From contig DASZTS010000014.1 of the NCBI GenBank assembly GCA_035547915.1, positions 53,134 through 117,133 on the forward strand: 64,000 nucleotides of DNA, written 5' to 3'. Position numbers and translations under genes: made by a program. This DNA is from Pirellulales bacterium. Its GTDB lineage: Bacteria > Planctomycetota > Planctomycetia > Pirellulales > JAICIG01. Under the pieces are notes generated by a model. It saw only the letters and a list, made by a program, of their open reading frames with translations. It had not been told where the DNA came from and made no database searches. Shown in pieces: positions 11,186 to 55,860 of this stretch; position 1 is the stretch's first letter; every line of letters begins with the position of its first letter.

Positions 11186-11258
11186 GGCTCGTTCGTCTAG
11201 CGGCCAAGGATGCCGGTTTTTCAAGCCGGAGACCGGGGTTCAACTCCCCGACGGGCTA
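11186..11258 (+). tRNA. tRNA-Glu(TTC)
   Basis: Cloverleaf folded by hand: acceptor GGCTCGT/ACGGGCT, anticodon arm CCGGT-TTTTCAA-GCCGG, T-arm CGGGG-TTCAACT-CCCCG. Confidence 0.75.
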
Positions 11259-11276
11259 CTCGGAAACACAGAACAA

Positions 11277-11348
11277 CGGGATGTAGGGTAACGGCGGCCC
11301 GCGTGCCTTGGGAGCACGAGCGAGTGGGTTCAACTCCCACCATCCCGA
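11277..11348 (+). tRNA. tRNA-Pro(TGG)
   Basis: C1:G72 acceptor (CGGGATG/CATCCCG), anticodon arm CGTGC-CTTGGGA-GCACG, T-arm GTGGG-TTCAACT-CCCAC. Confidence 0.75.
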
Positions 11349-11409
11349 CTTGGCCATCGCTCGGCGAGCGATCGGCAAGGAAGGGTGAGAGAGGTCGTCA
11401 TCGGAACAC

Positions 11410-11481
11410 GGTCCGGTGTTGTAAGGGAAGCATGGCGATCTGATACGTCGCCGGAGGTTGGTTCAACTCCACCCCGGACTA
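11410..11481 (+). tRNA. tRNA-Ile(GAT)-like, degenerate D-arm (possible pseudo-tRNA)
   Basis: Good anticodon arm GCGAT-CTGATAC-GTCGC and acceptor GGTCCGG/CCGGACT. T-arm has one mismatch and no convincing D-stem. Confidence 0.35.
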
Positions 11482-11547
11482 CTTCAACAGGAGACAACGA
11501 ATGCGGCAGCCACAACGATTCAAACGCATACGCCAGACCGGCAACAC

Positions 11548-11619
11548 GGGGTCGTGGCGTAACGGCAGCGCATCCGCCTTTTAAGCGGAAGGGTGAGGGT
11601 TCGATTCCCTCCGGCCCCA
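11548..11619 (+). tRNA. tRNA-Lys(TTT)
   Basis: Acceptor GGGGTCG/CGGCCCC, anticodon arm TCCGC-CTTTTAA-GCGGA, T-arm GAGGG-TTCGATT-CCCTC. Confidence 0.8.
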
Positions 11620-11626
11620 CTGATCT

Positions 11627-11698
11627 CGGCACGTAGCTCAGTGGCAGAGCGGGACTCTTATAAGGCCCTGGTCGAAGGTCCGATTCCTTCCGTGCCGA
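11627..11698 (+). tRNA. tRNA with UAU anticodon (Ile2-like)
   Basis: Perfect acceptor CGGCACG/CGTGCCG, D-stem GCTC/GAGC, anticodon arm GGACT-CTTATAA-GGCCC (one A.C mismatch), T-arm GAAGG-TCCGATT-CCTTC. Confidence 0.55.
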
Positions 11699-11723
11699 CT
11701 GGCAGAGGCGAACGACACAACAC

Positions 11724-11796
11724 GGGATCAAGGTGTTAGCGGCAGCATACCTGGCTCTTAACCAGGCTGGTGACGGTTCGAGCCCGTCTGGTCCCA
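11724..11796 (+). tRNA. tRNA-Lys(CTT)
   Basis: Acceptor GGGATCA/TGGTCCC, anticodon arm CCTGG-CTCTTAA-CCAGG, T-arm GACGG-TTCGAGC-CCGTC. Confidence 0.75.
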
Positions 11797-11810
11797 CTTG
11801 TGACAAGCAC

Positions 11811-11882
11811 GCACTGGTCGTCTAGCGGCGAAGACTCCGCACCCGTAATGCGGCGACGTGGGTTCGACTCCCGCCCGGTGCT
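11811..11882 (+). tRNA. tRNA-Thr(CGT), C33 in anticodon loop
   Basis: All four stems pair well (D GTCT/AGAC, anticodon CCGCA/TGCGG, T GTGGG/CCCGC). The loop reads CCCGTAA, which puts C at position 33. Confidence 0.55.
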
Positions 11883-11958
11883 CTCGATCTTTGACAATTC
11901 GGTGATCGCAAAAAAGCGGCCGACAGACCCGCAAGCCGAAGCGGGCTTTGTCGGCAAT

Positions 11959-12030
11959 GCACCCATGATGTAGCGGATGCCTATCTGCTTGCCATGCAGA
12001 AAGTGCCGGTTCGACTCCGGCTGGGGTGCT
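11959..12030 (+). tRNA. tRNA-Gly(GCC)-like
   Basis: Anticodon arm TCTGC-TTGCCAT-GCAGA, T-arm GCCGG-TTCGACT-CCGGC, discriminator U as expected for Gly. The acceptor has a bulge or mismatch at its base. Confidence 0.45.
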
Positions 12031-12052
12031 TTTGGAGCCGGACGAACAACAA

Positions 12053-12212
12053 TTCCCTCTCCCTTTGGGAGAGGGTTAGGGTGAGGGCGGATCGCCCGCT
12101 CTTGCATCGTTGATTCTCTTCGGACGTGGCTGGCGTTTTCGCTGAGCAAGAGACGACCCTATTGGTACTTTCAGCCGCCCTCACCCCGTCCCTCTCCCGA
12201 AAGGGAGAGGGA
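12053..12212. repeat. ~160-bp palindromic element (CCCTCTCCC...GGGAGAGGG family), copy 1
   Basis: Terminal mini-hairpins CCCTCTCCC-TTTG-GGGAGAGGG and CCCTCTCCC-GAAA-GGGAGAGGG. Long-range inverted repeat GGGTGAGGGCGG / CCGCCCTCACCC. Near-identical copy at 54203-54356. Confidence 0.8.
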
Positions 12213-12247
12213 GTAGTACTGCCGATGTTTTTTTGTTCGTTCCTTAA

Positions 12248-12321
12248 CGGCGTGTAGGAAAGCCTGGGACTCCGCGTGCGTCGGGAGCACGAGATCGCCG
12301 GTTCAAATCCGGCCACGCCGA
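12248..12321 (+). tRNA. tRNA-Pro(CGG)
   Basis: C1:G72 acceptor CGGCGTG/CACGCCG, anticodon arm CGTGC-GTCGGGA-GCACG, T-arm GCCGG-TTCAAAT-CCGGC. A T-rich tract follows. The serine recombinase gene ends 18 bp downstream. Confidence 0.8.
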
Positions 12322-13793
12322 CTTTTTTCAGAGATGAGCCCTTCGGCGAGAACGTCGAAGGGCTTTCTCATTGTGGTGACGAGAGTTACGCCGTCGAGGC
12401 GGCAGTTCAAAAACACGATTTCGAGCAAACGACGCTTTGTCGCGTAGTCGGCGGTAAGCCATTGCTGCCGAAGCGTTTGCGAAAGTTCAAAAACTTTCGA
12501 CGCCAGCTCCGCCGTTTCGTCGTGCGACCGGTCGAGCGCGTCGAGTTGCAGCTTGATCGACGCCATTCGGTCACGCAACTCCGTGTGTTTGCGGGCGAAC
12601 GTCTCCTGGTCGATGTCATCCGACAGTCGCATGTTGAGCAACCGGTCCTGCTGCTGCACGAGCAACGTCTCCTGCCGCTGAAGCTCCGAACGCTGGGCCA
12701 TCGACTCGGTCTGCGCATCCCGCGTCTGTGAAGCAAGTACCAGCCGGAACCAATCGCGGACGCTCTCATCCTCGACCTGCATCTTGTCGAACACGGCCAG
12801 CACCTGCTGGTCGATGTCGGCTTCCGTGACACGCACGCGGGGATGCCCAGCCCTGTTGTAGTACGTGCAGCGGTAATAGATGTAGAAGCGGTCGCCGTTC
12901 TTCGACTTTTTCCTGACCTTCTCGCCGGTAATCGGATGGCCGCAATGGCCGCATTGGATGATGTCGCCGGCGTACGTGATCGCGTGCGACTGGTAAATGT
13001 GATCGCCAAGCAGCACCTGCACGCGGTCCCACGTCGCACGGTCGATCAGCGGCTCGTGTTTGCCGGGATACCACTCGCCCTTGTGGAGGATTTCGCCGAT
13101 GTAGGCCCGATCCTTCAGAACGTTGTGGACCATGCTGCGGGGAAACTTCGGCTGTGCATCCCGAAAGACCCGCCCATCAGCTTCGAGCCGCTCGACCAGG
13201 CCGTCGAGGGTCACGTTCTCGTAGGCATAGAGATGGAAGATGCGTTTGACGTTGGCGGCAGCCGGGGGATCAACCTCGATGATGCCCCGCCCATCCTTGC
13301 GGACGTTGCGATAGCCATACGGAGCCAGTCCGATAAACCAGCCTTCCCGCACGCGACGGGCCAGCCCCTCGCGGACATCCACTGATTGCTGCTCGGTGTA
13401 GAAGCTTGCCATGTTGGCAAGCGTCCGCCGCATCATGCGGCCGGCGGGCGTATTTTCCGTCGGCTGCGACACGGAGATGAACGGCAGGTCGTATTCCGAC
13501 TCCAGCCGTTCCAGCTCAACGTAATCGAAGAGATTGCGGGCAGCCCGGTCCACCTTGTAGAACAGCAAGCCGTCGAGGAACGGGGCGTTCTTCTTGGCGT
13601 ACGCGATCAACTCGCGGAAGGTTTTCCGCTCATCAGTCTTGCTCGCCGTCTCGGCGATCTTGAACAGCTTGGCGATTTCGCCACCGGCCTGCATGGCGTA
13701 TCGCTTGAGGGCTTCTTCCTGTACTTCGAGGCTGAATCCCTCGCGTTCCTGTTCCCGGCTGCTTACCCGTGCCAACGCGACAAACTGTTTCAT
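12303..13793 (-). CDS. Large serine recombinase (site-specific integrase)
   Basis: N-terminal resolvase catalytic domain (ALARVSSREQ...), recombinase domain and Zn-ribbon (CGHCGHP...YYRC), coiled-coil C-terminus. Lies immediately adjacent to the 3' end of tRNA-Pro(CGG). Confidence 0.9.
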   Translation of the reverse strand: MKQFVALARVSSREQEREGFSLEVQEEALKRYAMQAGGEIAKLFKIAETASKTDERKTFRELIAYAKKNAPFLDGLLFYKVDRAARNLFDYVELERLESEYDLPFISVSQPTENTPAGRMMRRTLANMASFYTEQQSVDVREGLARRVREGWFIGLAPYGYRNVRKDGRGIIEVDPPAAANVKRIFHLYAYENVTLDGLVERLEADGRVFRDAQPKFPRSMVHNVLKDRAYIGEILHKGEWYPGKHEPLIDRATWDRVQVLLGDHIYQSHAITYAGDIIQCGHCGHPITGEKVRKKSKNGDRFYIYYRCTYYNRAGHPRVRVTEADIDQQVLAVFDKMQVEDESVRDWFRLVLASQTRDAQTESMAQRSELQRQETLLVQQQDRLLNMRLSDDIDQETFARKHTELRDRMASIKLQLDALDRSHDETAELASKVFELSQTLRQQWLTADYATKRRLLEIVFLNCRLDGVTLVTTMRKPFDVLAEGLISEKSRRGRI

Positions 13794-14050
13794 GGCGGGG
13801 ACCCCGAAGAAAGAGCCTGATACAACCGACCCACAGTCTGGATCATTGTAACGGCATCTTCGGGCGAAAGAAGGTCCGCATAATACGGCTGCCAGACACG
13901 GATCGTCTTCTCGATCAGTTCAGCCGTGATCCAGTCCGGCGTCCCGGCCGGAACGACGCCGGGGCGGGCATCGTTGCCGGTAGTGTCAGCCTTCTTTCGA
14001 TTGCTGCGGGACATGACTGGACACCACCACGAAATGCGCGCACGGTCCAA
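13790..14050 (-). CDS. Hypothetical protein
   Basis: ORF translationally coupled (4-bp overlap) to the recombinase gene. No recognisable motif. Confidence 0.35.
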   Translation of the reverse strand: MDRARISWWCPVMSRSNRKKADTTGNDARPGVVPAGTPDWITAELIEKTIRVWQPYYADLLSPEDAVTMIQTVGRLYQALSSGSPP

Positions 14051-14098
14051 CTGGCACCGCCGCGCGGAATTGTCGAACGCGAGGATCGGCGTTGCCGG

Positions 14099-14356
14099 TC
14101 AGCGGCCCGGCAACAAACCCTCCCGCTGGTAACGCCGAAGTTCATCATGGCTTATTGACCACGAGGCAAAGCTGGCACGACCGCTGAGCTTCTTGCTGGC
14201 CTGGATGCGACCGCCACGTGCCCATCCACGCACTGTCAAACTGGCACGCCCCACGATCCGGGCGAATTCCTCGACCGAATACCACTCCTGCTGCCGCGTC
14301 TCGACCAGCACGGCCAGCATCGCCTCGATCTTCTCAAGCCGTTGTTCCAGCGTCAT
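14099..14356 (-). CDS. Excisionase/MerR-like HTH DNA-binding protein (putative recombination directionality factor)
   Basis: Motif 'YSVEEFARIVGRASLTVRGWARGG' is typical of excisionase-family HTH domains. Located next to the serine recombinase. Confidence 0.5.
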   Translation of the reverse strand: MTLEQRLEKIEAMLAVLVETRQQEWYSVEEFARIVGRASLTVRGWARGGRIQASKKLSGRASFASWSISHDELRRYQREGLLPGR

Positions 14357-14529
14357 GCTCCACCTCAGCTCGCGCCTGTGTCAAAGTCCGACTTGAAATT
14401 CCCGTCGCTCGCAGCAACGCTCACCACGAGCGCTTCGATCACTACCAACACGATGAATTCAAACATCGGTACTCCTTCAAAAAATCCGGGAAAGATGATT
14501 GCCAGATGGGCACTGCCAGGCCCATGCGG

Positions 14530-14811
14530 CTAGTTTTTACTGGCTGTGATGGCCGCTCGCGCCGCGGCGATACCGGCCACCACCGCCCCGATGTCGTCGA
14601 TCAGCCCGAACGGCCCCAGCAACGCTTCGGGCACGATGTCGATCGGCGAAATGCAGTAAATCCCGCAGAAGATTGCGACACTCCAGCCCACGATCGGCAT
14701 AAGGAATTCCCGTAGCTTGCTGTTGGGCATCGACAGCAGCACTCCAAAGGCCACCGCCAGGAGGGTGCCGCAAAACACCATCAACTGAATTGTTCCAAAG
14801 AAACTGCTCAT
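14530..14811 (-). CDS. DUF1232-like small membrane protein
   Basis: Two TM segments and a 'ISPIDIVPEALLGPFGLIDDIGAV' motif characteristic of DUF1232/YkvA. Confidence 0.5.
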   Translation of the reverse strand: MSSFFGTIQLMVFCGTLLAVAFGVLLSMPNSKLREFLMPIVGWSVAIFCGIYCISPIDIVPEALLGPFGLIDDIGAVVAGIAAARAAITASKN

Positions 14812-14860
14812 GATTACCTCCTCTCAAAAAATGCGACGGCTTTGTTGTGGCCGCCGGTGG

Positions 14861-15082
14861 CTACATTTCCATTCCCTGACTCTGCTCCTCGATCTGTTGC
14901 TGCGGCTCTGGCTGGGCAACCTCCGGGCCGCCCTCCCGGCTCGCGTCCGGCCACTGGCCGGGACCGTAGGGAACGAACGCACTGCCGTTGAAGATGGCGT
15001 TGGCCAGTTCCATTTGGCCCTGCGTGGCCATCCGGCTCATCTCTTCGCCCACTTCGTTAAGAATGTCGCCAAGAATTGACAT
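14861..15082 (-). CDS. Hypothetical small acidic protein
   Basis: ORF only. Confidence 0.3.
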   Translation of the reverse strand: MSILGDILNEVGEEMSRMATQGQMELANAIFNGSAFVPYGPGQWPDASREGGPEVAQPEPQQQIEEQSQGMEM

Positions 15083-15105
15083 GCTTCACCTCCAGTGATT
15101 GGGAA

Positions 15106-15972
15106 CTATTGCTTCGCCGCACGTAAGTTAGTGGCAGCCGGTGCGGCATCGGTTCGAGTATGGTTCCAAGACGTATCGTCACGTGTGCCGCCGATCGAAC
15201 GCTGCTCGACCGATCGCCGGGAAACACGCGGTCTGCTAGCCTGGTCGGGCAATGCGCGACCAGCTTCTTTCGGATTGCCGTCCCGGTCGAATTCATCCAT
15301 CGTGTAGCGGAGCGCCTCACGTGACATCATTCGACCTTGCAACACGGCCCGGCGATGCGATCCGCTGTACTGGTGCATGAGTGTCAGGGTGCCGAGCGAC
15401 ACCAGGATTGCCGCCGCCAGCACAGCCACACACCCCCGTTTGATTCTGGCCTGTGCCCGCCGCCGGTCGTCTGCACTCGGCGGACCGAAGGATTCTTCGT
15501 AATAGCGGACCGTCGTCGTCCACAGCGGGGGAATGCCGGGCGTGAATATGATCGCGGTTCGCGGTGACAGTCCCTCTATTTCTTCGGGCTTCAGCAGCTT
15601 GCGGACCTGCTGGCCCCAACCGCTATTCTGGTTCTCCGAATAGCTGCTGCTTCCTTGCCCCGCCCCCGATGGCGACTGCACAGATTTCCCGGTGCTGCTG
15701 CCGCCGTTGTCCACCACGACCGTTTCCTCGCCCAGCCGGGTACTGACATACTGCGAAGTCTGTGGGTCGTTGACGCCGACGAACACTTGCGACGTGTTCG
15801 ATAAAATAGTTTGATCCTGGCCGTCGGGGCCTAGCTTCTTGAGCTGACCCAGCGATTGCAGCAGGTAAATCAGATGCACGCCGTAGCCTCGATATTTATC
15901 CTGCGCGTCATCGAGGGCGTCCATGTGACCCAGGCTGCCCGCTTCATCAAGGACAAAATGGACCTTTTTCAT
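15106..15972 (-). CDS. Type IV coupling protein TraG/VirD4, C-terminal fragment (Walker B onward)
   Basis: Begins MKKVHFVLDEAGSLG (Walker B DEAG), then LIYLLQSLGQL and TAIIFTPG. Overlaps the upstream fragment by 4 nt (ATGA). Confidence 0.7.
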   Translation of the reverse strand: MKKVHFVLDEAGSLGHMDALDDAQDKYRGYGVHLIYLLQSLGQLKKLGPDGQDQTILSNTSQVFVGVNDPQTSQYVSTRLGEETVVVDNGGSSTGKSVQSPSGAGQGSSSYSENQNSGWGQQVRKLLKPEEIEGLSPRTAIIFTPGIPPLWTTTVRYYEESFGPPSADDRRRAQARIKRGCVAVLAAAILVSLGTLTLMHQYSGSHRRAVLQGRMMSREALRYTMDEFDRDGNPKEAGRALPDQASRPRVSRRSVEQRSIGGTRDDTSWNHTRTDAAPAATNLRAAKQ

Positions 15973-17240
15973 TGCTGGAGTCCTCCTTCAACCACCGCCC
16001 GGAGCATCGCGCCAATCCACATCCGCATCAGGGCTGCTTGTGCCCGCAAATGCTCCGGCGGCAGGACCAGGTACACCGTCATCTTTCCGTTTCGTAGTCT
16101 GGCGGGATCGAAGCTGCTGGTCCGCGTATTCTCCGCGACGGCGATTGTGTCGAGGAATCGCAGGAAGCGGTTGGTTGTCGTGAGGACTGAGCTAAGTTCC
16201 TTGTCCTTGAAATGTGCGAGTTGGCCGCCTATTCGCCGAAGCATTCCGCCCCAGGCATCCGAGCCTTGCATCAATGCGATTGCGGCTTCCAGCTTTTTCG
16301 GATTTGAAAGAAGCGTGCGGACCGCCTGCAACGACCGGTCATCGCCGGGTTCTGCAAACTGCACGACCATCGAGCACAGCCCCGCTATAAGTGCTTCCGC
16401 ACTGTCTGGAAAATGCGGGTCTCTCTCTTGTCCAGTCCGAATCACAAATGCGTTGGCGAGATCAAAACATGCGTCGATCGCCAGCGGTGATTCCCTCTTG
16501 ATGAAATCCAGCGGATTGAAGGTGTCCGGCGTCTGCGTCACCACTTTGTAGGGATCGAGGATTCGCACCTCGTGCCCAAACACTTTCTCTCTGTGCGTCC
16601 CCGTTAAGGACGCTAATTCCCCTTTGACATCGACCACGACGCATGAATCGGGGCAAGTTTGCAGGAAGGGGATGACAAACGAAACGCCTTTGCCCACACC
16701 CGTGGGAGCGAACACCGCCGTATGTACGGCGTTTGGCAGCCTTACCAGCTTCTGTTCGGGCTGCCTGAACATTGCCAGAAACTCCTTGCACGCGGTTTCA
16801 TCATCAATCTGCCGGTCAAACAGGGCTTTGATTGCCGGACCGGCTCTCTGAGGGGAATCGGTGACTCGCCCAAGGATTAAGCCACTGTCGGCATCAAGCA
16901 TTCCGGCTCGCCTCAAATCCTCAGAGCCGGCCCAGCGGGCCGACCCCAACGTGGTCAACCGGTTTTTCTTCTTCCTGCAATGGACCACGATGACGACGGC
17001 CACGACCGTGAGCACGAAGTAGGGGTACATCCAAGCCGCGAGGCCACAAGGCAAAGCAATTGCCACGACGGCCACGACCAGCATTTGGCGATAGAAACTC
17101 ATTCCGCACCTCACTTCAAACTCGGATAAGCGGCCACATGCGGCGCTGCCTTCGGGTCCAGACCGTCCACGCTTGATTCTGCCGTGTCCTTCAGATGCTC
17201 TCGCATTGCAGACAGCCATGTCTCGGCCGCATTTCGCCAA
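15969..17240 (-). CDS. Type IV coupling protein TraG/VirD4, N-terminal fragment (TM + Walker A)
   Basis: N-terminal TM helices, Walker A APTGVGKGVSFVIP and TraG/VirD4-like all-alpha domain. Stops immediately before the Walker B encoded by the next ORF, so the gene is split (frameshift). Confidence 0.75.
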   Translation of the reverse strand: MAKCGRDMAVCNARASEGHGRIKRGRSGPEGSAACGRLSEFEVRCGMSFYRQMLVVAVVAIALPCGLAAWMYPYFVLTVVAVVIVVHCRKKKNRLTTLGSARWAGSEDLRRAGMLDADSGLILGRVTDSPQRAGPAIKALFDRQIDDETACKEFLAMFRQPEQKLVRLPNAVHTAVFAPTGVGKGVSFVIPFLQTCPDSCVVVDVKGELASLTGTHREKVFGHEVRILDPYKVVTQTPDTFNPLDFIKRESPLAIDACFDLANAFVIRTGQERDPHFPDSAEALIAGLCSMVVQFAEPGDDRSLQAVRTLLSNPKKLEAAIALMQGSDAWGGMLRRIGGQLAHFKDKELSSVLTTTNRFLRFLDTIAVAENTRTSSFDPARLRNGKMTVYLVLPPEHLRAQAALMRMWIGAMLRAVVEGGLQQ

Positions 17241-50690: not shown

Positions 50691-50765
50691 TGCGGTGGGA
50701 CCCGTGTTGGTACGGGTAGGCGGCTGTTAACCGCCCGGACGCAGGTTCGATTCCTGCCACCGCAG
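50691..50765 (+). tRNA. tRNA-Asn(GTT)
   Basis: U1:A72 acceptor TGCGGTG/CACCGCA, G73, anticodon arm GGCGG-CTGTTAA-CCGCC, T-arm GCAGG-TTCGATT-CCTGC. Confidence 0.8.
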
Positions 50766-50805
50766 CTTTTTTAAGCCTAATCTGGTTTTGTCGGTTGCTC
50801 TAAAT

Positions 50806-50877
50806 GTGCCCTTGGCCGAGCGGCAAAGGCTCCAGCCTTCCAAGCTGGCGAGGCGAGTTCGACTCTCGCAGGGCACT
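50806..50877 (+). tRNA. tRNA-Gly(TCC)
   Basis: Acceptor GTGCCCT/AGGGCAC, U73, anticodon arm CCAGC-CTTCCAA-GCTGG, T-arm GCGAG-TTCGACT-CTCGC. Confidence 0.8.
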
Positions 50878-50891
50878 CTGCATCGGATTGA

Positions 50892-50962
50892 TCGGGGATC
50901 GGCTAACGGTAGGCTGCCTGGCTTTGACCCAGGTGATGGAGGTTCAAGTCCTTCTCCCCGAA
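50892..50962 (+). tRNA. tRNA-Gln(TTG)
   Basis: U1:A72 acceptor TCGGGGA/TCCCCGA, anticodon arm CCTGG-CTTTGAC-CCAGG, T-arm GGAGG-TTCAAGT-CCTTC. Short D-arm. Confidence 0.65.
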
Positions 50963-50998
50963 CTTTGCTCGCGATGGTGTGTCTCAAGTAATACCCGA

Positions 50999-51072
50999 TC
51001 CGGGGCAGTCGCTGCTGGTAGCGATGCCTGGCTCTGAACCAGGAGGCGTTGGTTCGATTCCAACCCCCGGAA
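50999..51072 (+). tRNA. tRNA-Gln(CTG)
   Basis: Acceptor TCCGGGG/CCCCGGA, D-stem GTCGC/GCGAT, anticodon arm CCTGG-CTCTGAA-CCAGG, T-arm GTTGG-TTCGATT-CCAAC. Confidence 0.75.
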
Positions 51073-51121
51073 TTTTTATGGTCGAAAGAGATCTGCAACA
51101 AGTCGTGAACAACAGATAGAT

Positions 51122-51209
51122 GCGGAGGTCATCCGGCTGGATGAGGAACTTGTCTCGAAAACAAGTAGCGGCCCTGCCGCTTGTGAGTTCGAGTCTCACG
51201 GCCTCCGCC
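51122..51209 (+). tRNA. tRNA-Ser(CGA) (class II)
   Basis: Acceptor GCGGAGG/CCTCCGC, anticodon arm CTTGT-CTCGAAA-ACAAG, long variable arm GCGGCCCTGCCGC, T-arm GTGAG-TTCGAGT-CTCAC. Confidence 0.75.
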
Positions 51210-51322
51210 TTGAGTAAGAGCGGCTGATAGAAACCAAAAGCCCGAGCGCCATGGCAAAAATTGGCTGTGAAACGCCAATTTTTCGGCAGCTCGATCCAAT
51301 TTTGTCGGCTGCAATAAAACAC

Positions 51323-51395
51323 GGTCCCGTGGCCTAGCAGCGAAGGCAGCACCCTTACAAGGTGACGATCGACAGTGCGAGTCTGTCCGGGACTA
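51323..51395 (+). tRNA. tRNA-Val(TAC)
   Basis: Acceptor GGTCCCG/CGGGACT, anticodon arm GCACC-CTTACAA-GGTGA, T-arm GACAG-TGCGAGT-CTGTC (G55 in place of U). Confidence 0.65.
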
Positions 51396-51410
51396 CTTCA
51401 AACGCGAATC

Positions 51411-51484
51411 GCCTAGGTACGCCAACAGGCAGAGCGGCTTGGCTTAAACCCAAGTGTTTGCGGGTTCAACTCCCGCCCTGGGCA
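51411..51484 (+). tRNA. Class-I (short variable arm) tRNA with UAA anticodon (Leu anticodon, atypical)
   Basis: Acceptor GCCTAGG/CCTGGGC, anticodon arm CTTGG-CTTAAAC-CCAAG, T-arm GCGGG-TTCAACT-CCCGC. 74 nt with only a 5-nt variable loop. Confidence 0.55.
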
Positions 51485-51546
51485 CTCGTGAAGACAGCTT
51501 AGAGCAACCGGCAAGATCGGACGCCGGTCTTGTCAGCCGCTCTTAC

Positions 51547-51619
51547 GGCTCGGTAGGCAACGGCAGACCACCTTGGCTTAGAACCAGGGATGCTGTGGGT
51601 TCGAGTCCCACCTGAGCCA
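51547..51619 (+). tRNA. Class-I tRNA with UAG anticodon (Leu anticodon, atypical)
   Basis: Acceptor GGCTCGG/CTGAGCC, anticodon arm CTTGG-CTTAGAA-CCAGG, T-arm GTGGG-TTCGAGT-CCCAC. 6-nt variable loop. Confidence 0.55.
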
Positions 51620-51624
51620 TTCGC

Positions 51625-51742
51625 ATAAGAACGGCTGACGAAACCTGGAAGCCGGAGCGCGGCGGGCGAAAAATCGGTCGTGAAACGCCGAGTTTTTGAA
51701 ACATCGAGTCGGTTTCGTCAGTTGCTCGAAGAATTTCGTCCT
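51625..51742. repeat. Palindromic ~110-bp spacer element (TAGAGCGGCTGACAAAACCGG ... CCGGTTTTGTCGGTTGCTCTA family)
   Basis: Inverted terminal arms and internal hairpin ATCGGCCGTGAAACGCCGAT. Further copies at 52014-52108, 52352-52473, 52553-52660 and 55491-55600. Partial copies at 51497-51545, 52905-52950, 53290-53350 and 56451-56512. Confidence 0.75.
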
Positions 51743-51747
51743 CGTGG

Positions 51748-51822
51748 AGCAGCCTGGAGTGCTCGCCACCCTGTCAAGGTGGAGGTCGTGGGTTCAAATC
51801 CCATCGGGGACGCCTTTGAAAG
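51748..51822 (+). tRNA. tRNA-Asp(GTC)
   Basis: Acceptor GTCCTCG/CGGGGAC, G73, D-stem GAGC/GCTC, anticodon arm CCACC-CTGTCAA-GGTGG, T-arm GTGGG-TTCAAAT-CCCAT. Confidence 0.8.
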
Positions 51823-51835
51823 CACGGCGCGGTAC

Positions 51836-51913
51836 GCAAACGGGAAAAGCGGCCAAGCTCAAACCTTGGTGATTCTTTGTCGGTTCGACTCCGACCCGCG
51901 CCACTCGAACACG
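51836..51913 (+). tRNA. tRNA with CAA anticodon (Leu anticodon), 9-nt variable loop, atypical
   Basis: Acceptor GGCGCGG/CCGCGCC, anticodon arm CCAAG-CTCAAAC-CTTGG, T-arm GTCGG-TTCGACT-CCGAC. 78 nt, without the long class-II variable arm. Confidence 0.55.
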
Positions 51914-51931
51914 AACAACATGCGTCGGTTG

Positions 51932-52013
51932 GGCATTGGCAAGCTCCAGTGGCCGTAACCCACCCGCCTTCGGGCTCTGCAGGTTCGACTCCTGCCCGGC
52001 GCACTAAGAGCGG
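51932..52013 (+). tRNA. tRNA-Tyr(GTA) (class II), C33
   Basis: Acceptor GCGTCGG/CCGGCGC, A73, anticodon loop CCGTAAC, variable arm CCGCCTTCGGGCT, T-arm GCAGG-TTCGACT-CCTGC. Confidence 0.55.
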
Positions 52014-52117
52014 CTGACAAAATCGGGAAGCCGGAGTGCCGCGGGCGAAAAAATCGGCCGTGAAACGCCGGTTTTTGTGGCTCGATCCGGTTCTGTCGGT
52101 TGCTCTAGATACAACTT

Positions 52118-52188
52118 GGCCCGTTCGTCTATCGGTAGGACACGAGCCCCTCAAGCTCGGAAGGCGGGTTCGATTCCCGTGCGGGTCA
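52118..52188 (+). tRNA. tRNA-Glu(CTC), C33
   Basis: Acceptor GGCCCGT/GCGGGTC, D-arm of Glu type (TCGTCTATCGGTAGGAC), anticodon arm CGAGC-CCCTCAA-GCTCG, T-arm GCGGG-TTCGATT-CCCGT. Confidence 0.6.
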
Positions 52189-52192
52189 CTTC

Positions 52193-52276
52193 GGCCAAGT
52201 GGTGCAATTGGAAGACACACGACGCTCAGAACGTCGGCCCCTCGCGGGCGTGGGAGTTCGAGTCTCCCCTTGGTCA
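52193..52276 (+). tRNA. tRNA-Leu(CAG) (canonical class II)
   Basis: Acceptor GGCCAAG/CTTGGTC, anticodon arm CGACG-CTCAGAA-CGTCG, long variable arm GCCCCTCGCGGGCGT, T-arm GGGAG-TTCGAGT-CTCCC. Confidence 0.8.
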
Positions 52277-52282
52277 TTTCGA

Positions 52283-52351
52283 CGCAGGTGGGCCAGTGTC
52301 CAGCGAAGCCTCATAAGCTTCGCGCGCCGGGTGCGACTCCCGGACCTGCAA
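52283..52351 (+). tRNA. tRNA-Met(CAT), short (69 nt), initiator-like C1.A72 mismatch
   Basis: Anticodon arm (GC)GAAGC-CTCATAA-GCTTC(GC), T-arm CCGGG-TGCGACT-CCCGG, acceptor CGCAGGT/ACCTGCA with unpaired C1.A72 and A73. Reduced D-arm. Confidence 0.5.
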
Positions 52352-52476
52352 CTTTGGAGTTGCTCTTAGAGCGGCTGACAAAACCCGGAAGCCGGAGCGC
52401 CCGTGGGCGAAAAATCGGCCGTGAAACGCCGATTTTTGTGGAGCGAAGTCCGGTTTTGTCGGTTGCTCTTAGATGC

Positions 52477-52552
52477 GGCCGGGTACGCAAACCGGAAAAG
52501 CGGCGAGGTCGAGAGCCTCGTGACTCTGTGGGTTCGACCCCCACCTCGGCTA
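52477..52552 (+). tRNA. tRNA with GAG anticodon (Leu anticodon), 7-nt variable loop, C33, atypical
   Basis: Paralog of the CAA tRNA (same TA-CGC-AAACCGGAAAA-GCG D-arm). Anticodon arm CGAGG-TCGAGAG-CCTCG, T-arm GTGGG-TTCGACC-CCCAC. Confidence 0.5.
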
Positions 52553-52660
52553 CTAAGAGCGGTTGACAAAAGCTAGACGCCGGCGCGCCGCGGGCGAGAA
52601 ATCGGCCGCGAAACGCCGATCTTTGTGGAGCGCGATCTGGTTTTGTCGATTGCTCTAAAC

Positions 52661-52732
52661 GATCTCGTGGTCCAACGGCGACGACGCTTGGCTGACGTCC
52701 GGGAAACGATGGTTCAACTCCATCCGGGATCA
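52661..52732 (+). tRNA. tRNA-Val(GAC)
   Basis: Acceptor GATCTCG/CGGGATC, anticodon arm CTTGG-CTGACGT-CCGGG (two G.U pairs), T-arm GATGG-TTCAACT-CCATC. Confidence 0.55.
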
Positions 52733-52737
52733 CTCAT

Positions 52738-52808
52738 GGTCTGTAGGTGTTTCGGCAGCACACCGCCGTGGTAAGGCGGAAGACCCGGTTCAATTCCGGG
52801 ACGGACCT
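52738..52808 (+). tRNA. tRNA-Thr(GGT)
   Basis: Acceptor GGTCTGT/ACGGACC, anticodon arm CCGCC-GTGGTAA-GGCGG, T-arm CCCGG-TTCAATT-CCGGG. Confidence 0.75.
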
Positions 52809-52829
52809 CTGACACGACAAACACAACAC

Positions 52830-52901
52830 GGGCCTGCATGTCCCCGGAGGCGACTGACCCTTGCAAGGTCGGTGTGATGGGTTCGACCCCCATCAGGTCC
52901 A
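52830..52901 (+). tRNA. tRNA-Ala(TGC)
   Basis: G3.U70 identity pair, acceptor GGGCCTG/CAGGTCC, anticodon arm TGACC-CTTGCAA-GGTCG, T-arm ATGGG-TTCGACC-CCCAT. Confidence 0.8.
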
Positions 52902-52955
52902 CTTGTTAGAGGAACCGACAGAACCGGATCGAGCTTTCCTCGGATCGACTGATAT

Positions 52956-53026
52956 GGGCTGCTGGTCCAACGGGACGACGCCGGCTCCGCAGGCCGGAAA
53001 TCGGAGTTCGACTCTCCGGCGGTCCA
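52956..53026 (+). tRNA. tRNA-Ala(CGC), C33
   Basis: G3.U70 present. Anticodon arm CCGGC-TCCGCAG-GCCGG, T-arm CGGAG-TTCGACT-CTCCG. Confidence 0.6.
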
Positions 53027-53036
53027 CTGACAACGA

Positions 53037-53107
53037 GGGCTCATCGTCAAAAGGGAAGACGCCAGTCCGGCAGGCTGGAGATCTGGGTTCGATTCCCAGT
53101 GGGTCCA
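53037..53107 (+). tRNA. tRNA-Ala(GGC), C33
   Basis: G3.U70 present. Anticodon arm CCAGT-CCGGCAG-GCTGG, T-arm CTGGG-TTCGATT-CCCAG. Confidence 0.6.
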
Positions 53108-53124
53108 CTCAACCGAGGAGAAAG

Positions 53125-53211
53125 GGAAGGTAGGCGGATACGGCTTGCCGCGCCGCTTTGCTAAAGCGGTTCCCGGGACACGGGATGAGGGTTCGACTCC
53201 CTTGCCTTCCG
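53125..53211 (+). tRNA. tRNA-Ser(GCT) (class II)
   Basis: Acceptor GGAAGGT/GCCTTCC, G73, anticodon arm CCGCT-TTGCTAA-AGCGG, variable arm TCCCG-GGACA-CGGGA, T-arm GAGGG-TTCGACT-CCCTT. Confidence 0.75.
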
Positions 53212-53217
53212 CTCGTT

Positions 53218-53289
53218 GCCCCGATGGTGAAACGGACATCATCCCCTGCTTCTAACTGGGTGTTCCGGGTTCGAGTCCTGGTCGGGGTA
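53218..53289 (+). tRNA. tRNA-Arg(TCT)
   Basis: Acceptor GCCCCGA/TCGGGGT, anticodon arm CCCTG-CTTCTAA-CTGGG (one U.U mismatch), T-arm CCGGG-TTCGAGT-CCTGG. Confidence 0.5.
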
Positions 53290-53366
53290 CTGATAAGAGC
53301 AACCGAAAAGACCGGATTGCGCTCTCGGCTTCCGGTTCTTGCCGGCCACTGTAAGGAGGACCGTTT

Positions 53367-54170
53367 ATGACAACCGACATCGAGAGGCAATTCGCCAAGA
53401 TGGGTGCGCGGATCAAGCTGCACGAGCGCGAGCAGATCGGCAGCATGGCCGGCGTCTCGATCGACATCGGTCGCGACCGGTTGGGCGAGTTTTATGACGT
53501 CTCTGTGGACAACCGCGACGACAAGAACTTGTCGGTGCTCGACGTGCGACCCCGCATCCGGCACTTGCTGTTGTCGTACCATCGGCCGGCGGTGAACACC
53601 AACAGCCGGTTCCTGTGCGGTCACGACGAGCGGCATTGGTTCGTCGCGGCGATCCCCGAAACATCGGCGTCGTCGTCGGTGCGGACCGCCATGGAGTCGC
53701 TCAAGCCGATGGCCGTTCGCCGCCTGCAGGAGAGACTTCGCGTCAAGCCACAGAAGCGGAACCGCCGGCGCAACGCAGCGTTCGTCCGACAGGGCGAGTG
53801 GTTCTTCATCCGTATTGCTCCATCCGTCCGCATCGACGAGTGGATGGTTCTGCGGAACGAGCCATTGCGGCGTGGCAACGGCAAGCCGCATTTCGTCGAG
53901 GAGCTGATTCGCGTCGGCGGAGAAGCGGTCTATGTCAGCAACCAATACCCGCAGGGTCTCACGTTCCGCGAGTATCAGAAGCTGATCGGCCGCAAGCCGG
54001 AGCTACGGCACTTGCAATGGGTTGTGCAGCGGCGCAACCCGCAGGTTTTTGTACGGGGTAGGGTTCGCCATGCCGATCACAAGACGATTTTCTTGGACGG
54101 CTGGCACCAGGTACTGATGAACACCGAGACGCAGTCGCTCGCGATGCGTCATGTGGCGTTCATCGACTGA
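53367..54170 (+). CDS. Hypothetical protein (inside tRNA array)
   Basis: RBS AAGGAGG then ATG. 267-aa basic protein with no recognised motif. Confidence 0.5.
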   Translation: MTTDIERQFAKMGARIKLHEREQIGSMAGVSIDIGRDRLGEFYDVSVDNRDDKNLSVLDVRPRIRHLLLSYHRPAVNTNSRFLCGHDERHWFVAAIPETSASSSVRTAMESLKPMAVRRLQERLRVKPQKRNRRRNAAFVRQGEWFFIRIAPSVRIDEWMVLRNEPLRRGNGKPHFVEELIRVGGEAVYVSNQYPQGLTFREYQKLIGRKPELRHLQWVVQRRNPQVFVRGRVRHADHKTIFLDGWHQVLMNTETQSLAMRHVAFID

Positions 54171-54202
54171 GAGTCGGACGATAAAGAGAGCCGGACGATA
54201 AA

Positions 54203-54356
54203 TTCCCTCTCCCTCCGGGAGAGGGTTAGGGTGAGGGCCGATCGCGCGCTCCTGTGTTGTCGACTCTCTTCGGACGTGGCTGAGTTTTCGCTGAACAGGG
54301 GACCGACCCCATTAGTACTCTCAGCCGCCCTCACCCAACCCTCTCCCCGAGGAGAG
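54203..54356. repeat. ~160-bp palindromic element (CCCTCTCCC...GGGAGAGGG family), copy 2
   Basis: Near-identical to 12053-12212. Partial copies at 55112-55170 and 55320-55345. Confidence 0.8.
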
Positions 54357-54414
54357 GACGGAAGACTGCGGAAGTTATTCGATCGCGGGTTGGCGGAACC
54401 GTCGACCCGCATAC

Positions 54415-54490
54415 GGTGTCTGTGGTGTAGCGGTATTCTGCACGCCCGGCTGTGAACCGGATGGTATGGGTTCGACTCCCGTCAGACACC
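54415..54490 (+). tRNA. tRNA-His(GTG) with encoded G-1
   Basis: G-1 pairs with C73. Acceptor GTGTCTG/CAGACAC, anticodon arm CCCGG-CTGTGAA-CCGGA, T-arm ATGGG-TTCGACT-CCCGT. Followed by a CTTTTTTTG tract. Confidence 0.8.
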
Positions 54491-54517
54491 CTTTTTTTGA
54501 CAAGGAGGAATTTGGTC

Positions 54518-55111
54518 GTGGTTGCAAAGATGTTGAACAGACCGGCGCTGGTGCTCAACCGTAACTGGCAGCCGGTGAACGTCGCTACCGTCGCTCGCGC
54601 GCTGGTCATGCTCTTCAACGAGGCGGCCCGCGTCGTCGACCCGCACGACTACCAGCTCTACACCTGGACTGACTGGTCGCGGCTGGCTCCGCGCGACGGC
54701 GAGCCGTTCATCCGGGCGGTGAGCCTGCGGCTGCGCGTGCCGGAGGTGATCGTGCTGGCGGGTTACGATCGGCTGCCCGAGGCGGCCGTCTCGTTCAGCC
54801 GGCGCAACATCTTCAAGCGTGACCACTACACGTGCCAGTATTGCGGCGTGCAACCCGGCCTCGCGGAGTTGTCGATCGACCACGTCGTCCCGCGGTCGCA
54901 GGGCGGCACCTCGACCTGGGACAACTGCGTGCTGGCATGCGTGGACTGCAACAAGACGAAGGCCGACCGCACGCCCGCCGAGGCCGGCATGAAACTGCGC
55001 AAGCAGCCTTGCCGGCCACAATGGAAGCCACTCTACGCCGCGCACAACGTGCGCATCGAGAGCTGGTCGAAGTTCATCAGCGAAGCCTACTGGAGTGTCG
55101 AACTCCGCTAG
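54518..55111 (+). CDS. HNH endonuclease
   Basis: C-terminal HNH motif (DHVVPRSQGGTSTWDNCVLACVDCNKTKADRTP) and Cys-rich CQYCG. RBS AAGGAGG, then a GTG at 54518 or an ATG at 54530. Confidence 0.75.
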   Translation: MVAKMLNRPALVLNRNWQPVNVATVARALVMLFNEAARVVDPHDYQLYTWTDWSRLAPRDGEPFIRAVSLRLRVPEVIVLAGYDRLPEAAVSFSRRNIFKRDHYTCQYCGVQPGLAELSIDHVVPRSQGGTSTWDNCVLACVDCNKTKADRTPAEAGMKLRKQPCRPQWKPLYAAHNVRIESWSKFISEAYWSVELR

Positions 55112-55245
55112 ATCCCCTCTCCCTCTGGGAGAGGGTTAGGGTGAGGGCGGCTTGCATTACAAGCCGCGTCCAACCTGCCTCTCGCTGACAATAGTTTCTT
55201 CGTTCGTTTCCCGATCCAAGCTGGGGCAGCTTGGATCGGCCTTAT

Positions 55246-55315
55246 AGGATCGTGCTCCTGGGAGAGCACGCGGTCTCCAAAGCCGCTTCACGGGGTTCGA
55301 CTCCTCGCGATCCTG
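55246..55315 (+). tRNA. tRNA-Trp(CCA)
   Basis: A1:U72 acceptor AGGATCG/CGATCCT, G73, D-stem GCTC/GAGC, anticodon arm GCGGT-CTCCAAA-GCCGC, T-arm CGGGG-TTCGACT-CCTCG. Confidence 0.8.
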
Positions 55316-55414
55316 CTCGATCCCCTCTCCCTCCGGGAGAGGGCAAACAGGTCGATACCCGTGCCCAGTGACAACTACATAACACGCGAGTCATCGGCCT
55401 TACATGAACAACCT

Positions 55415-55486
55415 GTCCTGATGGTGTAACGGAACGCATTCGACCCTCCGAAGGTCGTGGTCCTGGTTCGAGTCCAGGTCGGGACA
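55415..55486 (+). tRNA. tRNA-Arg(CCG)
   Basis: Acceptor GTCCTGA/TCGGGAC, anticodon arm CGACC-CTCCGAA-GGTCG, T-arm CCTGG-TTCGAGT-CCAGG. T-tract follows. Confidence 0.8.
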
Positions 55487-55613
55487 TTTTTTAGATTACA
55501 GAGCAACCGACAAAACCGGATGCAGCTCCGACAAATCGGCGTTTCACGGCCGATTTTTCGCCCACCGCGCTCCTGCTTCCGAGTCTTGTCAGCCGCTCTG
55601 GCGATCCAACCTT

Positions 55614-55684
55614 GCCCTGCGAGTGTGATGGAAGCACGGCAGTCTTCGGAACTGCAAGACGGGGTCCGATTCCTCGGCGGGGTA
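55614..55684 (+). tRNA. tRNA-Arg(TCG)
   Basis: Acceptor GCCCTGC/GCGGGGT, anticodon arm GCAGT-CTTCGGA-ACTGC, T-arm CGGGG-TCCGATT-CCTCG. Confidence 0.7.
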
Positions 55685-55703
55685 CTGCTGCTCGAAAAAA
55701 CTT

Positions 55704-55777
55704 GTCCTCGGAGTGTGCCGGATTTCGCACGCGAGCCCGCGAAGCTCGTAGACCAGGTTCGATTCCTGGCGAGGACG
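55704..55777 (+). tRNA. tRNA-Arg(GCG), C33
   Basis: Perfect acceptor GTCCTCG/CGAGGAC, anticodon arm CGAGC-CCGCGAA-GCTCG, T-arm CCAGG-TTCGATT-CCTGG. Confidence 0.55.
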
Positions 55778-55788
55778 CTTGAACGATT

Positions 55789-55860
55789 GACGCTGGAGCC
55801 AGACGGCACGGCAACCGCCTGCAAAGCGGTTCGAAGCGGGTTCGACTCCCGCCGGCGTCT
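55789..55860 (+). tRNA. tRNA-Cys(GCA)
   Basis: Acceptor GACGCTG/CGGCGTC, U73, anticodon arm ACCGC-CTGCAAA-GCGGT, T-arm GCGGG-TTCGACT-CCCGC. Confidence 0.8.

Follow-up and report, generated by a model that had tools for sequence, protein, structure and literature searches.

A conserved planctomycete tRNA operon with a predicted leader attenuator, split by a mobilizable element at its own tRNA-Pro(CGG) gene

The 64,000-nucleotide stretch of Pirellulales bacterium contig DASZTS010000014.1 analyzed here (the window) holds a single tRNA operon in two pieces. The operon consists of a leader small open reading frame (sORF), a candidate antiterminator box, a terminator, 38 non-redundant tRNA genes, the gene of a 267 amino acid protein and an HNH endonuclease gene. 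It was cut between tRNA-Pro(CGG) and tRNA-Asn by a 38.4-kb element, for which the array's own tRNA-Pro(CGG) served as the attachment site, the tRNA being left intact. Overall the best explanation is that of one conserved chromosomal tRNA operon, split by a mobilizable element, whose genes would form a reserve set gated by the leader; we would give it a probability of about 0.78. The principal features, in window coordinates, are as follows.

10911..11012 (+): leader sORF of 33 amino acids (MMTKRPSITNERIGTCSFAGKPANRLPAHPLRL, then stop), its UGA stop (11010-11012) lying within the antiterminator box
11009..11021 (+): candidate antiterminator box, GUGAC(A/G)CUCGG.., complementary to the 5' arm of the terminator
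11046..11076 (+): intrinsic terminator with an 11-bp G+C-rich stem, ACGC loop and U run, 20 nt upstream of tRNA-Phe
11097-11169 (+): tRNA-Phe(GAA), the first array gene
11097..12322 (+): left part of the array, 10 tRNAs: Phe-GAA, Glu-TTC, Pro-TGG, Ile-GAT, Lys-TTT, Ile-TAT, Lys-CTT, Thr-CGT, Gly-GCC, Pro-CGG
12248..12322 (+): tRNA-Pro(CGG), the integration target, with attL at its 3' end and an intact acceptor stem
12303..13793 (-): large serine recombinase of 496 amino acids (Pfam Resolvase, Recombinase and Zn_ribbon_recom; PF00239, PF07508, PF13408)
12323..50685: insert of 38,363 bp, classed as an integrative mobilizable element, probably composite
50676..50690 (+): right junction (attR), TCGCCCCGAC followed by the 5-nt spacer TCGAT, before tRNA-Asn
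50691..55861 (+): right part of the array, 28 tRNAs from Asn-GTT to Cys-GCA (ARAGORN)
53367..54170 (+): array-embedded 267 amino acid protein (AlphaFold2 pLDDT 92.7)
54518..55111 (+): HNH endonuclease between tRNA-His and tRNA-Trp (Pfam HNH, 1e-14; PHROG 16726, 6.8e-34)

By ARAGORN the window contains 38 plus-strand tRNA genes, ten of them at 11097-12322 and 28 at 50691-55861, and none in the 38 kb between the halves or elsewhere in the window. They carry 38 different anticodons and represent all 20 amino acids; for independent random sets of 10 and 28 taken from ~45 anticodons, the probability of no overlap is ~6e-6. An earlier note on this DNA, for which 37 tRNAs had been folded by hand, held that the two halves have no anticodon in common. 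Each of its anticodon calls (37/37) was reproduced by ARAGORN, which revealed neither duplicates between the halves nor fewer genes than the folding by hand. Its starting point for the array, 11186, lies 89 nt downstream of the actual one, 11097, and the tRNA-Phe which it had reported as missing is the first of ten, not nine, genes in the left half.

Using homologs of the 267 amino acid protein, 80 loci were fetched from reference genomes, and approximately 45 of 81 Pirellulales and Planctomycetales chromosomal loci carry a tRNA array around this gene. In both orders the genes run Phe, Glu, (Pro-GGG), Pro-TGG, Ile-GAT, Lys, Ile-UAU, Lys, Thr, Gly, Pro-CGG, Asn, ... Arg-TCT, the ORF, His, Trp, ... 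Arg, Arg, Cys, and the same order, leader and embedded gene are found in loci of the Lacipirellulaceae, Pirellulaceae and Planctomycetaceae. The order of the left part in the window is that of L017, L018, L032, L034, L056 and L057, and the window as a whole matches L018, the fullest relative (42 genes), nearly position for position, lacking the isoacceptors Pro-GGG, Ser-TGA, Ser-GGA, Thr-TGT and Arg-ACG. Intergenic spacers in the uninterrupted relatives are mostly 5-100 nt, and tRNA-Pro(CGG) is separated from tRNA-Asn by 6-15 nt in seven of them (L017, L018, L024, L032, L034, L056 and L057). Scanning metagenomes for the Pro(CGG)-Asn junction added 14 further contigs, all of them uninterrupted, with spacers of 6-9 nt (e.g. 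TTTGAT, TGTGAT and TGACCCGAT); the insert is absent from this junction in the seven genome loci and the 14 metagenome contigs alike. Two independent arrays can be rejected, since the relatives carry the array uninterrupted and in the same order. The proposal of the earlier note, one ancestral array interrupted by an insertion, agrees with these relatives and with the recombinase at the edge of the insert.

The genes on the left flank specify planctomycete-specific PSD/PSCyt and DUF1552 proteins, and those on the right an SPFH protein, a dehydrogenase and DinB, the SPFH gene following the array remnant also in L082, the closest relative (protein 82% identical). From the planctomycete flanks, the SPFH gene shared with L082 and the uninterrupted relatives it follows that the array is chromosomal and the split secondary. 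The earlier note had regarded arrays of this size as typical of mobile elements or phages rather than of planctomycete chromosomes; the flanks, the ~45 chromosomal loci and the literature (PMC4807772) indicate otherwise. Gene content differs among genomes and loss of the whole array is frequent: it is absent in the close relatives L003, L004 and L082, the last having lost most of the array and being unusable as an empty-site reference. With an order shared across families, inheritance within the Planctomycetia looks vertical.

The left end of the insert coincides with the end of tRNA-Pro(CGG). The last 20 nt of the recombinase ORF overlap the 3' end of this gene, which encodes the final codons of the protein. 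At the right end stands TCGCCCCGAC, a 10-nt sequence identical to the canonical tRNA-Pro 3' end in L083 and L084, as one would predict for an attP arm imitating the usual target. The original Pro-Asn spacer was most likely TCGAT, from which the limits of the insert, 12323-50685, follow. Homologs of the recombinase number at least 120 among the matches listed, are 76-100% identical and mostly 496 residues long, and come from Pirellulales, Planctomyces, Gemmataceae (Zavarzinella) and Phycisphaerae; homologs with 77-93% identity occupy tRNA-Pro genes of other genomes in this manner. In three of four cases examined (L083, L084 and L087) the 3' end of the recombinase gene overlaps a canonical tRNA-Pro(CGG/TGG) in the same register, and in the fourth (L086) the gene adjoins a tRNA-Pro-like remnant. 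The tRNA side of the junction varies by host and matches the tRNA of that host, whereas the element side keeps a conserved hairpin; this places the crossover at the very end of the tRNA, in ...CCGACT between CCGAC and the final T, which is why tRNA-Pro stayed intact. The two junctions in the window have just this CCGACT core in common. Inside the insert the tRNA-Pro 3' end does not recur, and neither the insert nor any nested element is flanked by long direct repeats. The predicted attP is ..GTCGCCCCGAC joined at the crossover to TTTTTTCAG.. (also written ..CCGTCTTGTCGCCCCGAC joined to TTTTTTCAGAGATGAGCCC..), and the predicted attB is the tRNA-Pro 3' end, TCGAT and the 5' end of tRNA-Asn.

The 496-residue protein has the domain set of large serine recombinases, is encoded at the edge of the insert by an attachment site with a short core, and its homologs have a common target; it is, on these grounds, probably the integrase of the element. 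Related elements share the gene order ParB, type IV coupling protein, small ORFs, HTH_17/excisionase-like protein and recombinase, and they lie at ordinary tRNA-Pro genes with no array nearby. As judged from these homologs and junctions, the family is widespread in the Planctomycetota and targets the 3' end of tRNA-Pro; in the window the element landed on a divergent and probably spare copy of its usual target. The third-codon-position G+C content (GC3) is 0.70 in the element and 0.81 in the flanking genes.

Upstream of the array, a conserved sORF, predicted to be translated, is separated from the tRNA genes by an intrinsic terminator, the arrangement of an attenuator. In 20/20 loci in which the box was located the sORF is open and ends at the same UGA; across the arrays its products are 31-40 amino acids long and have the conserved motif F(A/G)xQP(A/L)N..P.Y.LR(L/M), which ends at the stop codon. 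Synonymous codon differences amount to 29% in the leader frame vs 14% and 19% in the other two frames, and at one proline position four synonymous codons are used. The box is nearly invariant in 19 aligned leaders and is separated from the terminator by a variable linker. Pairing between box and terminator arm is possible in 89.9% of cells vs 23-45% with a slid partner. For the terminator (-27.4 kcal/mol, z = -7.2), pairing is possible in 99.5% of cells, and 5 of its 11 pairs have changed in a compensatory manner (19 loci). Truncated before the terminator 3' arm, the leaders of the window and of L012 fold into the helix of box and arm, and the full leader folds into the terminator. A search with the combined pattern of box and terminator gave 20 matches, the window and 19 fetched loci, with one match per array. 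In 18 of these 19 loci the pattern precedes tRNA-Phe by 4-79 nt; in the exception, the cut-down array L041, it precedes tRNA-Arg by 102 nt. It occurs nowhere else, neither before the right half in the window nor in the phage loci. A T-box riboswitch or another leader known to Rfam was rejected, as no covariance model matched region 10911-11096 at E <= 1 beyond noise. In a full-text literature search no report was found that connects tRNA arrays to leader peptides or attenuators.

These elements suggest a mechanism of ribosome-dependent attenuation, acting on transcription of the array that would start upstream of the leader. While a ribosome occupies the leader UGA it would mask the box, the terminator would form and the array be off; were the ribosome stalled or absent, the unmasked box could pair with the terminator 5' arm, and the array would be on. 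Under this model of leader attenuation the array would be a reserve tRNA pool induced by impaired translation, with a putative function as a stress-inducible reserve set. The insertion altered this arrangement. After tRNA-Pro come the conserved hairpin of the element (12338-12363), a T-rich stretch and then 38 kb, and the last gene of the insert, which adjoins tRNA-Asn, is oriented away from the right half. The right half is accordingly separated from the leader, with the 10 left genes alone remaining behind it; the 28 downstream tRNAs would have lost leader control and be silent unless driven by another promoter. Since all 28 right-hand genes can still be called by ARAGORN, either the insertion is recent or the right half is expressed from an unrecognized promoter.

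The array tRNAs are unusual in sequence. Their Rfam scores span 32-72 bits, 29/38 being confirmed at the gathering threshold and nine falling below it. With sensitive filters a tRNA-type match was obtained for 35/38, namely 10/10 in the left half and 25/28 in the right. Twenty of the latter 25 match RF00005; the two Ser tRNAs, Tyr and Trp match the tRNA-Sec model only, below the threshold of that model, and Met has a Tymo_tRNA-like match only. Even these filters gave no match for Leu-GAG (52477), Ala-TGC (52830) and Arg-GCG (55704). tRNA-Ile(UAU) (11627-11699) scores 60.5 bits in the window, 74.1 in L002 and 66.2 in L018. Four of the five Leu species (UAA, UAG, CAA and GAG) are 73-79 nt long and without a long variable arm. 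No array tRNA in the window reads the Ser codons UCU/UCC/UCA or the Thr codon ACA, and there is one CAT tRNA only. Alignments of orthologs nevertheless argue for constraint: compensatory pairs number 8/20 in Ile-UAU, 12/22 in Leu-UAA, 14/21 in Met and 12/21 in Arg-GCG, the last keeping its cloverleaf through such changes in 21 other arrays, and the anticodon loops are invariant in all four alignments. By this evidence the array tRNAs are divergent yet constrained.

Several side observations concern these tRNAs. The short Leu tRNAs (51411-51485, 51547-51619, 51826-51904 and 52477-52553; orthologs in L007-L057) keep A73, and the trait is conserved in every array examined. The sole CAT tRNA (52283-52352) has a C1xA72 mismatch, as in bacterial initiators, together with a 4-bp D-stem closed by a very small, 4-nt loop and a 6-bp anticodon stem, an odd shape which is conserved. 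CCA is encoded by 0/38 array tRNAs.

Comparison with other strains suggests that the array is a supernumerary and not a housekeeping set. Published counts give 101 tRNA genes for the array-bearing strain SH528 (L013) vs 44-88 in its relatives, and 96 for SH139 (L028 and L030) vs 43-67. In L002 a canonical 85-nt tRNA-Leu(CAA) lies 6.5 kb from an array that also holds a 76-nt tRNA-Leu(CAA). The array tRNA-Pro(CGG) of the window scores 51 bits in Rfam vs 64-66 for the canonical tRNA-Pro genes at other sites of the element. In the genomes studied by Kim et al. all anticodons except UAU were also found outside the clusters (PMC4807772).

Alternatives exist for the leader, the array and the insert. 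Concerning the leader, it could be a riboswitch or a protein-binding attenuator with an incidental sORF; two conserved hairpins lie in the ORF region, one of them with a C-G to G-U change, and the peptide lacks a regulatory codon run. This is unlikely, though it deserves to be kept in mind: all 20 loci keep the frame open up to the same UGA inside the box, the four proline codons and the high synonymous fraction belong to this frame, and no Rfam family matches. The array itself might be a decaying cluster of non-functional tRNA pseudogenes, in which case the splitting would be inconsequential. Such is the published view of planctomycete clusters (PMC4807772), and the low covariance-model scores, the three genes without an Rfam match, the variable gene content and the frequent loss of whole arrays are in keeping with it. 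It fits poorly with compensatory substitutions that maintain every stem in the four tested ortholog groups, the two worst-scoring ones included, with invariant anticodon loops, and with the order, leader ORF and terminator conserved across families, and we consider it distinctly unlikely. The opposite proposition, that the array is the main housekeeping tRNA set, could appeal to its coverage of all 20 amino acids without redundancy and to cloverleaves under purifying selection. It is the least probable of the alternatives, given the unread Ser and Thr codons, the single CAT tRNA, the four Leu species without a long variable arm and the low Rfam scores (51 vs 64-66 bits for tRNA-Pro). A terminator, moreover, would gate the array, which is absent in close relatives; array-bearing strains have about twice the tRNA genes of their relatives, and anticodons other than UAU are found outside such clusters as well (PMC4807772).

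Two further alternatives concern the insert. Tyrosine integrases are the usual tRNA-targeting enzymes, and a complete module of AlpA and a P4-type integrase (21525-22715) lies within a patch of low G+C content; this internal integrase might have made the insertion, or the 38 kb might represent two separately arrived elements. Its gene, however, is 9 kb from one end of the insert and 28 kb from the other, neither a second tRNA-Pro 3' end nor long bounding direct repeats accompany it, and it is the junction of serine recombinase and tRNA-Pro that recurs in independent genomes. We find this account very unlikely; a nested second element is quite possible and would leave the enzyme of the outer junction unaffected. 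It is harder still to regard the whole array as recently acquired mobile-element or prophage cargo and the 38-kb element as part of the same island. Long arrays elsewhere are indeed reported to spread horizontally and to have HNH neighbors (PMC8421152, PMC4758250), an HNH gene lies within this array, and homologs of the 267 amino acid protein occur in phage tRNA clusters. Yet the same array, leader and embedded gene stand in ~45 chromosomal loci across families without the element, related recombinase elements occupy ordinary tRNA-Pro genes with no array near them, and neither a recombinase nor a repeat is found at the outer sides of the array.

Against the favored explanation, that of a conserved chromosomal operon gated by its leader and split by the element, a number of points have to be set. 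The antiterminator helix is conserved but so nearly invariant that covariation cannot prove the pairing; a run of codons for one amino acid, as found in classical attenuators, is present in 0/20 leader peptides; and a sigma-70 consensus scan gave no promoter ahead of the leader or of the right half. The evidence for supernumerary status comes from other strains. The case for vertical inheritance is made from gene order across families, and the empty-site allele of exactly this strain was not among the 14 metagenome junctions. AlpA and the tyrosine integrase constitute a second recombination module, and the history of the insert may involve two events.

The array is of an already known kind; what is new is its conserved organization, the leader, the protein partner and the serine-recombinase element that targets tRNA-Pro. 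Kim et al. (2016, PLoS One, PMC4807772, S2 Text) described, for many Planctomycetes, "degenerate tRNA gene clusters" with 2-28 tRNAs of low score, presumed to be horizontally acquired and dispensable, with weak similarity and disrupted synteny, and containing a single well-formed tRNA-Ile(UAU) that is present in clusters only. The arrays considered here resemble these in phylum, in low-scoring tRNAs beyond the canonical set and in a canonical-type tRNA-Ile(UAU). They differ in an order conserved across families, in size (up to 42 genes) and in compensated stems, and do not display the rapid decay that marks those clusters; the leader ORF, terminator and embedded protein gene conserved here are not mentioned by Kim et al. 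(PMC4807772). Two surveys count the Planctomycetes among the phyla with long arrays, which are read as horizontally spread (PMC4758250, PMC8421152). With the L-arrays of Santamaria-Gomez et al. (2021, NAR, PMC8421152) and the tRNA array units of Tran et al. (2016, PMC4758250) the array shares more than 20 same-strand tRNAs at more than 2 per kb, the lack of periodicity, a probable supernumerary status and an HNH endonuclease neighbor. With 28 genes in 5,171 nt, the right half falls within the definition of an array unit (at least 20 tRNAs, at least 2 per kb), as does the rejoined array with 38 genes in ~6.4 kb; the left half alone, with 10 genes, is outside it. Like an L-array it is long, non-periodic, of one orientation and co-transcribable, co-transcription being broken here by the insert. 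L-arrays are described as sporadic and horizontally spread, a distribution not seen here, frequent array losses notwithstanding. The Anabaena array is regulated through promoter direct repeats and is induced by impaired translation, a mechanism different from the leader-peptide/terminator element proposed here (PMC8421152); the suggested role as a reserve set under translational stress is borrowed from that array by analogy.

By analogy, too, the leader would resemble the attenuators trpL, hisL and pheL and the arrest-peptide leaders TnaC and ErmCL in its upstream sORF, its terminator and a competing helix that depends on ribosome position. Unlike these it would control tRNA genes and not biosynthetic or resistance genes, and cognate codons do not form a run in it; its conserved C-terminal peptide, with the stop inside the competing helix, would put it nearer to arrest peptides than to classical attenuators. 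The element, for its part, resembles mobilizable and conjugative elements that integrate into tRNA genes in having a recombinase at its edge by an intact tRNA 3' end, a relaxase, a coupling protein, restriction-modification/defense cargo and atypical codon usage. It differs from them in its large serine recombinase in place of a tyrosine integrase, a CCGACT core without a long direct repeat, the lack of detected type IV secretion genes and its target, a probably supernumerary array tRNA.

Taken alone, the entry of a mobile element into a tRNA gene is nothing out of the ordinary; here it suggests that a spare array tRNA can act as a landing site and spare the housekeeping gene. More generally, "degenerate" planctomycete clusters that are conserved in order, constrained in structure and preceded by a leader offer a testable model for the switching on of a supernumerary tRNA operon, for which the window, with 10 tRNAs behind the leader and 28 not, is a natural experiment.

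The embedded protein belongs to an abundant, uncharacterized family of ~6,150 homologs, thousands of them planctomycete, with a confident predicted structure and ties to tRNA clusters in bacteria and large phages. It has no match in Pfam, NCBIfam, PHROGs, PADLOC or PDB sequences, and no fold match; a look-up of its exact sequence gave a 1.5-kb contig only. Residues D87, E88, RQGEWFF (141-147), H175, H238, E254 and the C-terminal D267 are invariant. Its gene lies inside the array in array-bearing loci, among them the differently ordered arrays of Phycisphaera (L079) and L064, and is kept in Gemmataceae and Isosphaeraceae with no array within 10 kb. Homologs with 24-49% identity are encoded on 77 IMG/VR viral contigs, many of 100-500 kb. 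At least five same-strand tRNA genes lie within 10 kb of the homolog in 31/77 of these viral loci, and in 29 of the best 45, the homolog often being inside the cluster (viral loci L089, L093-L095, L104, L106, L113, L122, L123, L127-L130 and L149); in one viral locus a UvsX-like recombinase and a weak virion-protein match lie nearby. The family is thus associated with tRNA clusters in hosts and phages. Like the array of the window, the tRNA clusters of large (jumbo) phages (survey PMC6409571) are dense and same-stranded and carry the homolog; unlike it, they differ in gene order and lack the leader motif. The phage connection drawn by the earlier note does not hold for this genome, but the homologs in phage clusters leave room for a distant one, and an ancient phage or mobile origin of the array module is possible because homologs lie inside tRNA clusters of large phage contigs.

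A more speculative extension is that of a regulated reserve translation kit, made up of a ribosome-sensing leader, a complete alternative tRNA set and the phage-shared 267 amino acid protein; this is possible, although we are more inclined to doubt it than to accept it. The tRNA set would include short-arm tRNA-Leu and a tRNA-Ile(UAU) needing no lysidine, and the protein may act on or protect the array tRNAs. If true, hosts and phages would share an unrecognized module that sustains translation when tRNAs are depleted or attacked.

Among the other genes of the inserted element are the following.

14099..14356 (-): HTH_17/excisionase-like small protein (Pfam HTH_17, E = 8e-6; 26.5 bits, slightly short of the curated cut-off, 27)
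15106..17240 (-): type IV coupling protein (VirD4/TraG), split into ORFs 15969-17240 and 15106-15972 (Pfam T4SS-DNA_transf)
17274..18089 (-): ParB-like protein (Pfam ParB_N), in the same position in L084, L086 and L087
20987-21190 (+): AlpA regulator (Pfam Phage_AlpA)
21525-22715 (+): P4-type tyrosine integrase (Pfam Arm-DNA-bind_3, Phage_int_M, Phage_integrase)
23519..26185 (-): TrwC-type relaxase-helicase (Pfam TrwC, 4.6e-72; AAA_30)
31162..44111 (+): defense/modification cargo (Pfam; PADLOC mad2/DrmD-like matches)
within 31162..44111 (+): methyltransferase/SNF2-helicase protein of 1949 amino acids (Pfam)
37471-39072, 39062-40396 and 41040-44111 (+): type I restriction-modification proteins HsdM, HsdS and HsdR (Pfam)
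44591-46555 (-): 5-hydroxymethyldeoxyuridine (5-hmdU) DNA kinase/MazG fusion (Pfam HMUDK_hel, 1.5e-110; MazG_C)
46546-47412 (-): thymidylate-synthase-like protein (weak NCBIfam/PHROG matches)

An IrrE/HTH pair is also encoded. The HTH_17 protein is a candidate directionality factor by its domain, and an HTH_17-domain gene lies likewise upstream of the recombinase in L083 and L084. In the coupling protein, positions 37-289 and 302-451 of the T4SS-DNA_transf model fall in separate ORFs with a 4-nt overlap, whereas the protein is intact, with 571-596 residues, in related elements; either decay of the element or an indel in the assembly accounts for the split. A dip in G+C content at 20-23 kb surrounds the AlpA/tyrosine-integrase module. 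A Pfam scan of 29 of the insert ORFs (19 of at least 116 amino acids, the rest of 67-150) revealed no type IV secretion component. With a relaxase, a split coupling protein and no secretion system found, the insert is better described as an integrative mobilizable element than as a self-transmissible integrative and conjugative element (ICE), and its gene content suggests that it is probably composite.

Thymidine-hypermodification modules are usually found in phages; here the pair of hmdU-kinase/MazG and thymidylate-synthase-like genes is carried on an integrative element with a relaxase. A 4'-phosphopantetheinyl transferase gene (44191-44574) lies between the restriction system and the hmdU-kinase gene. 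The insert contains two pairs of direct repeats, 26316-26400/27356-27440 (85 nt, 92%) and 27687-27754/31681-31748 (68 nt, 85%), the 85-nt copies being located at the 5' end of, and directly after, a 2OG-Fe(II) oxygenase gene. In Zavarzinella formosa (L086, 8878-10098) genes for an RtcB RNA ligase and a HEPN/AbiU2 protein adjoin the related recombinase element; in Anabaena the tRNA array and RtcB are under common regulation.

The array HNH gene is shared with some relatives (L005, L006, L012 and L082) and is absent in others. Beyond tRNA-Cys, at 55932..56029 (+), a degenerate tRNA-like sequence retains a good T-arm and an encoded CCA end; ARAGORN reported it at a relaxed threshold only, and it has no Rfam match. 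It does not align to the tRNA-Arg(ACG) of L018 and may be a decayed former array member. The chromosome of strain SH139 carries two copies of the whole array (L028 and L030), ~200 kb apart and each with a leader and a 267 amino acid protein gene; a segmental duplication of comparable kind was reported for another strain by Kim et al. (PMC4807772).

Two families of repeats occupy spacers of the array. A palindromic repeat of ~105 nt (TAAGAGCGGCTGACAAAAC ... GTTTTGTCGGTTGCTCT) takes up many right-half spacers, in either orientation (window 51215-56512), with copies at ~51215-51319, 51501-51546, 51626-51732, 52005-52110, 52366-52473, 52554-52660, 55500-55601 and 56456-56512. Its end motif has nine matches in the window, all within or just after the right half and none in the left, and one copy folds at -54.5 kcal/mol (z = -6). 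The second family (CCCTCTCCC..GGGAGAGGGTTAGGGTGAGGGC) has four copies in the window (12051-12232, 54201-54352, 55106-55155 and 55315-55343), all in array spacers and on both sides of the insert, and the stretches 12051-12132 and 54201-54282 are 88% identical.

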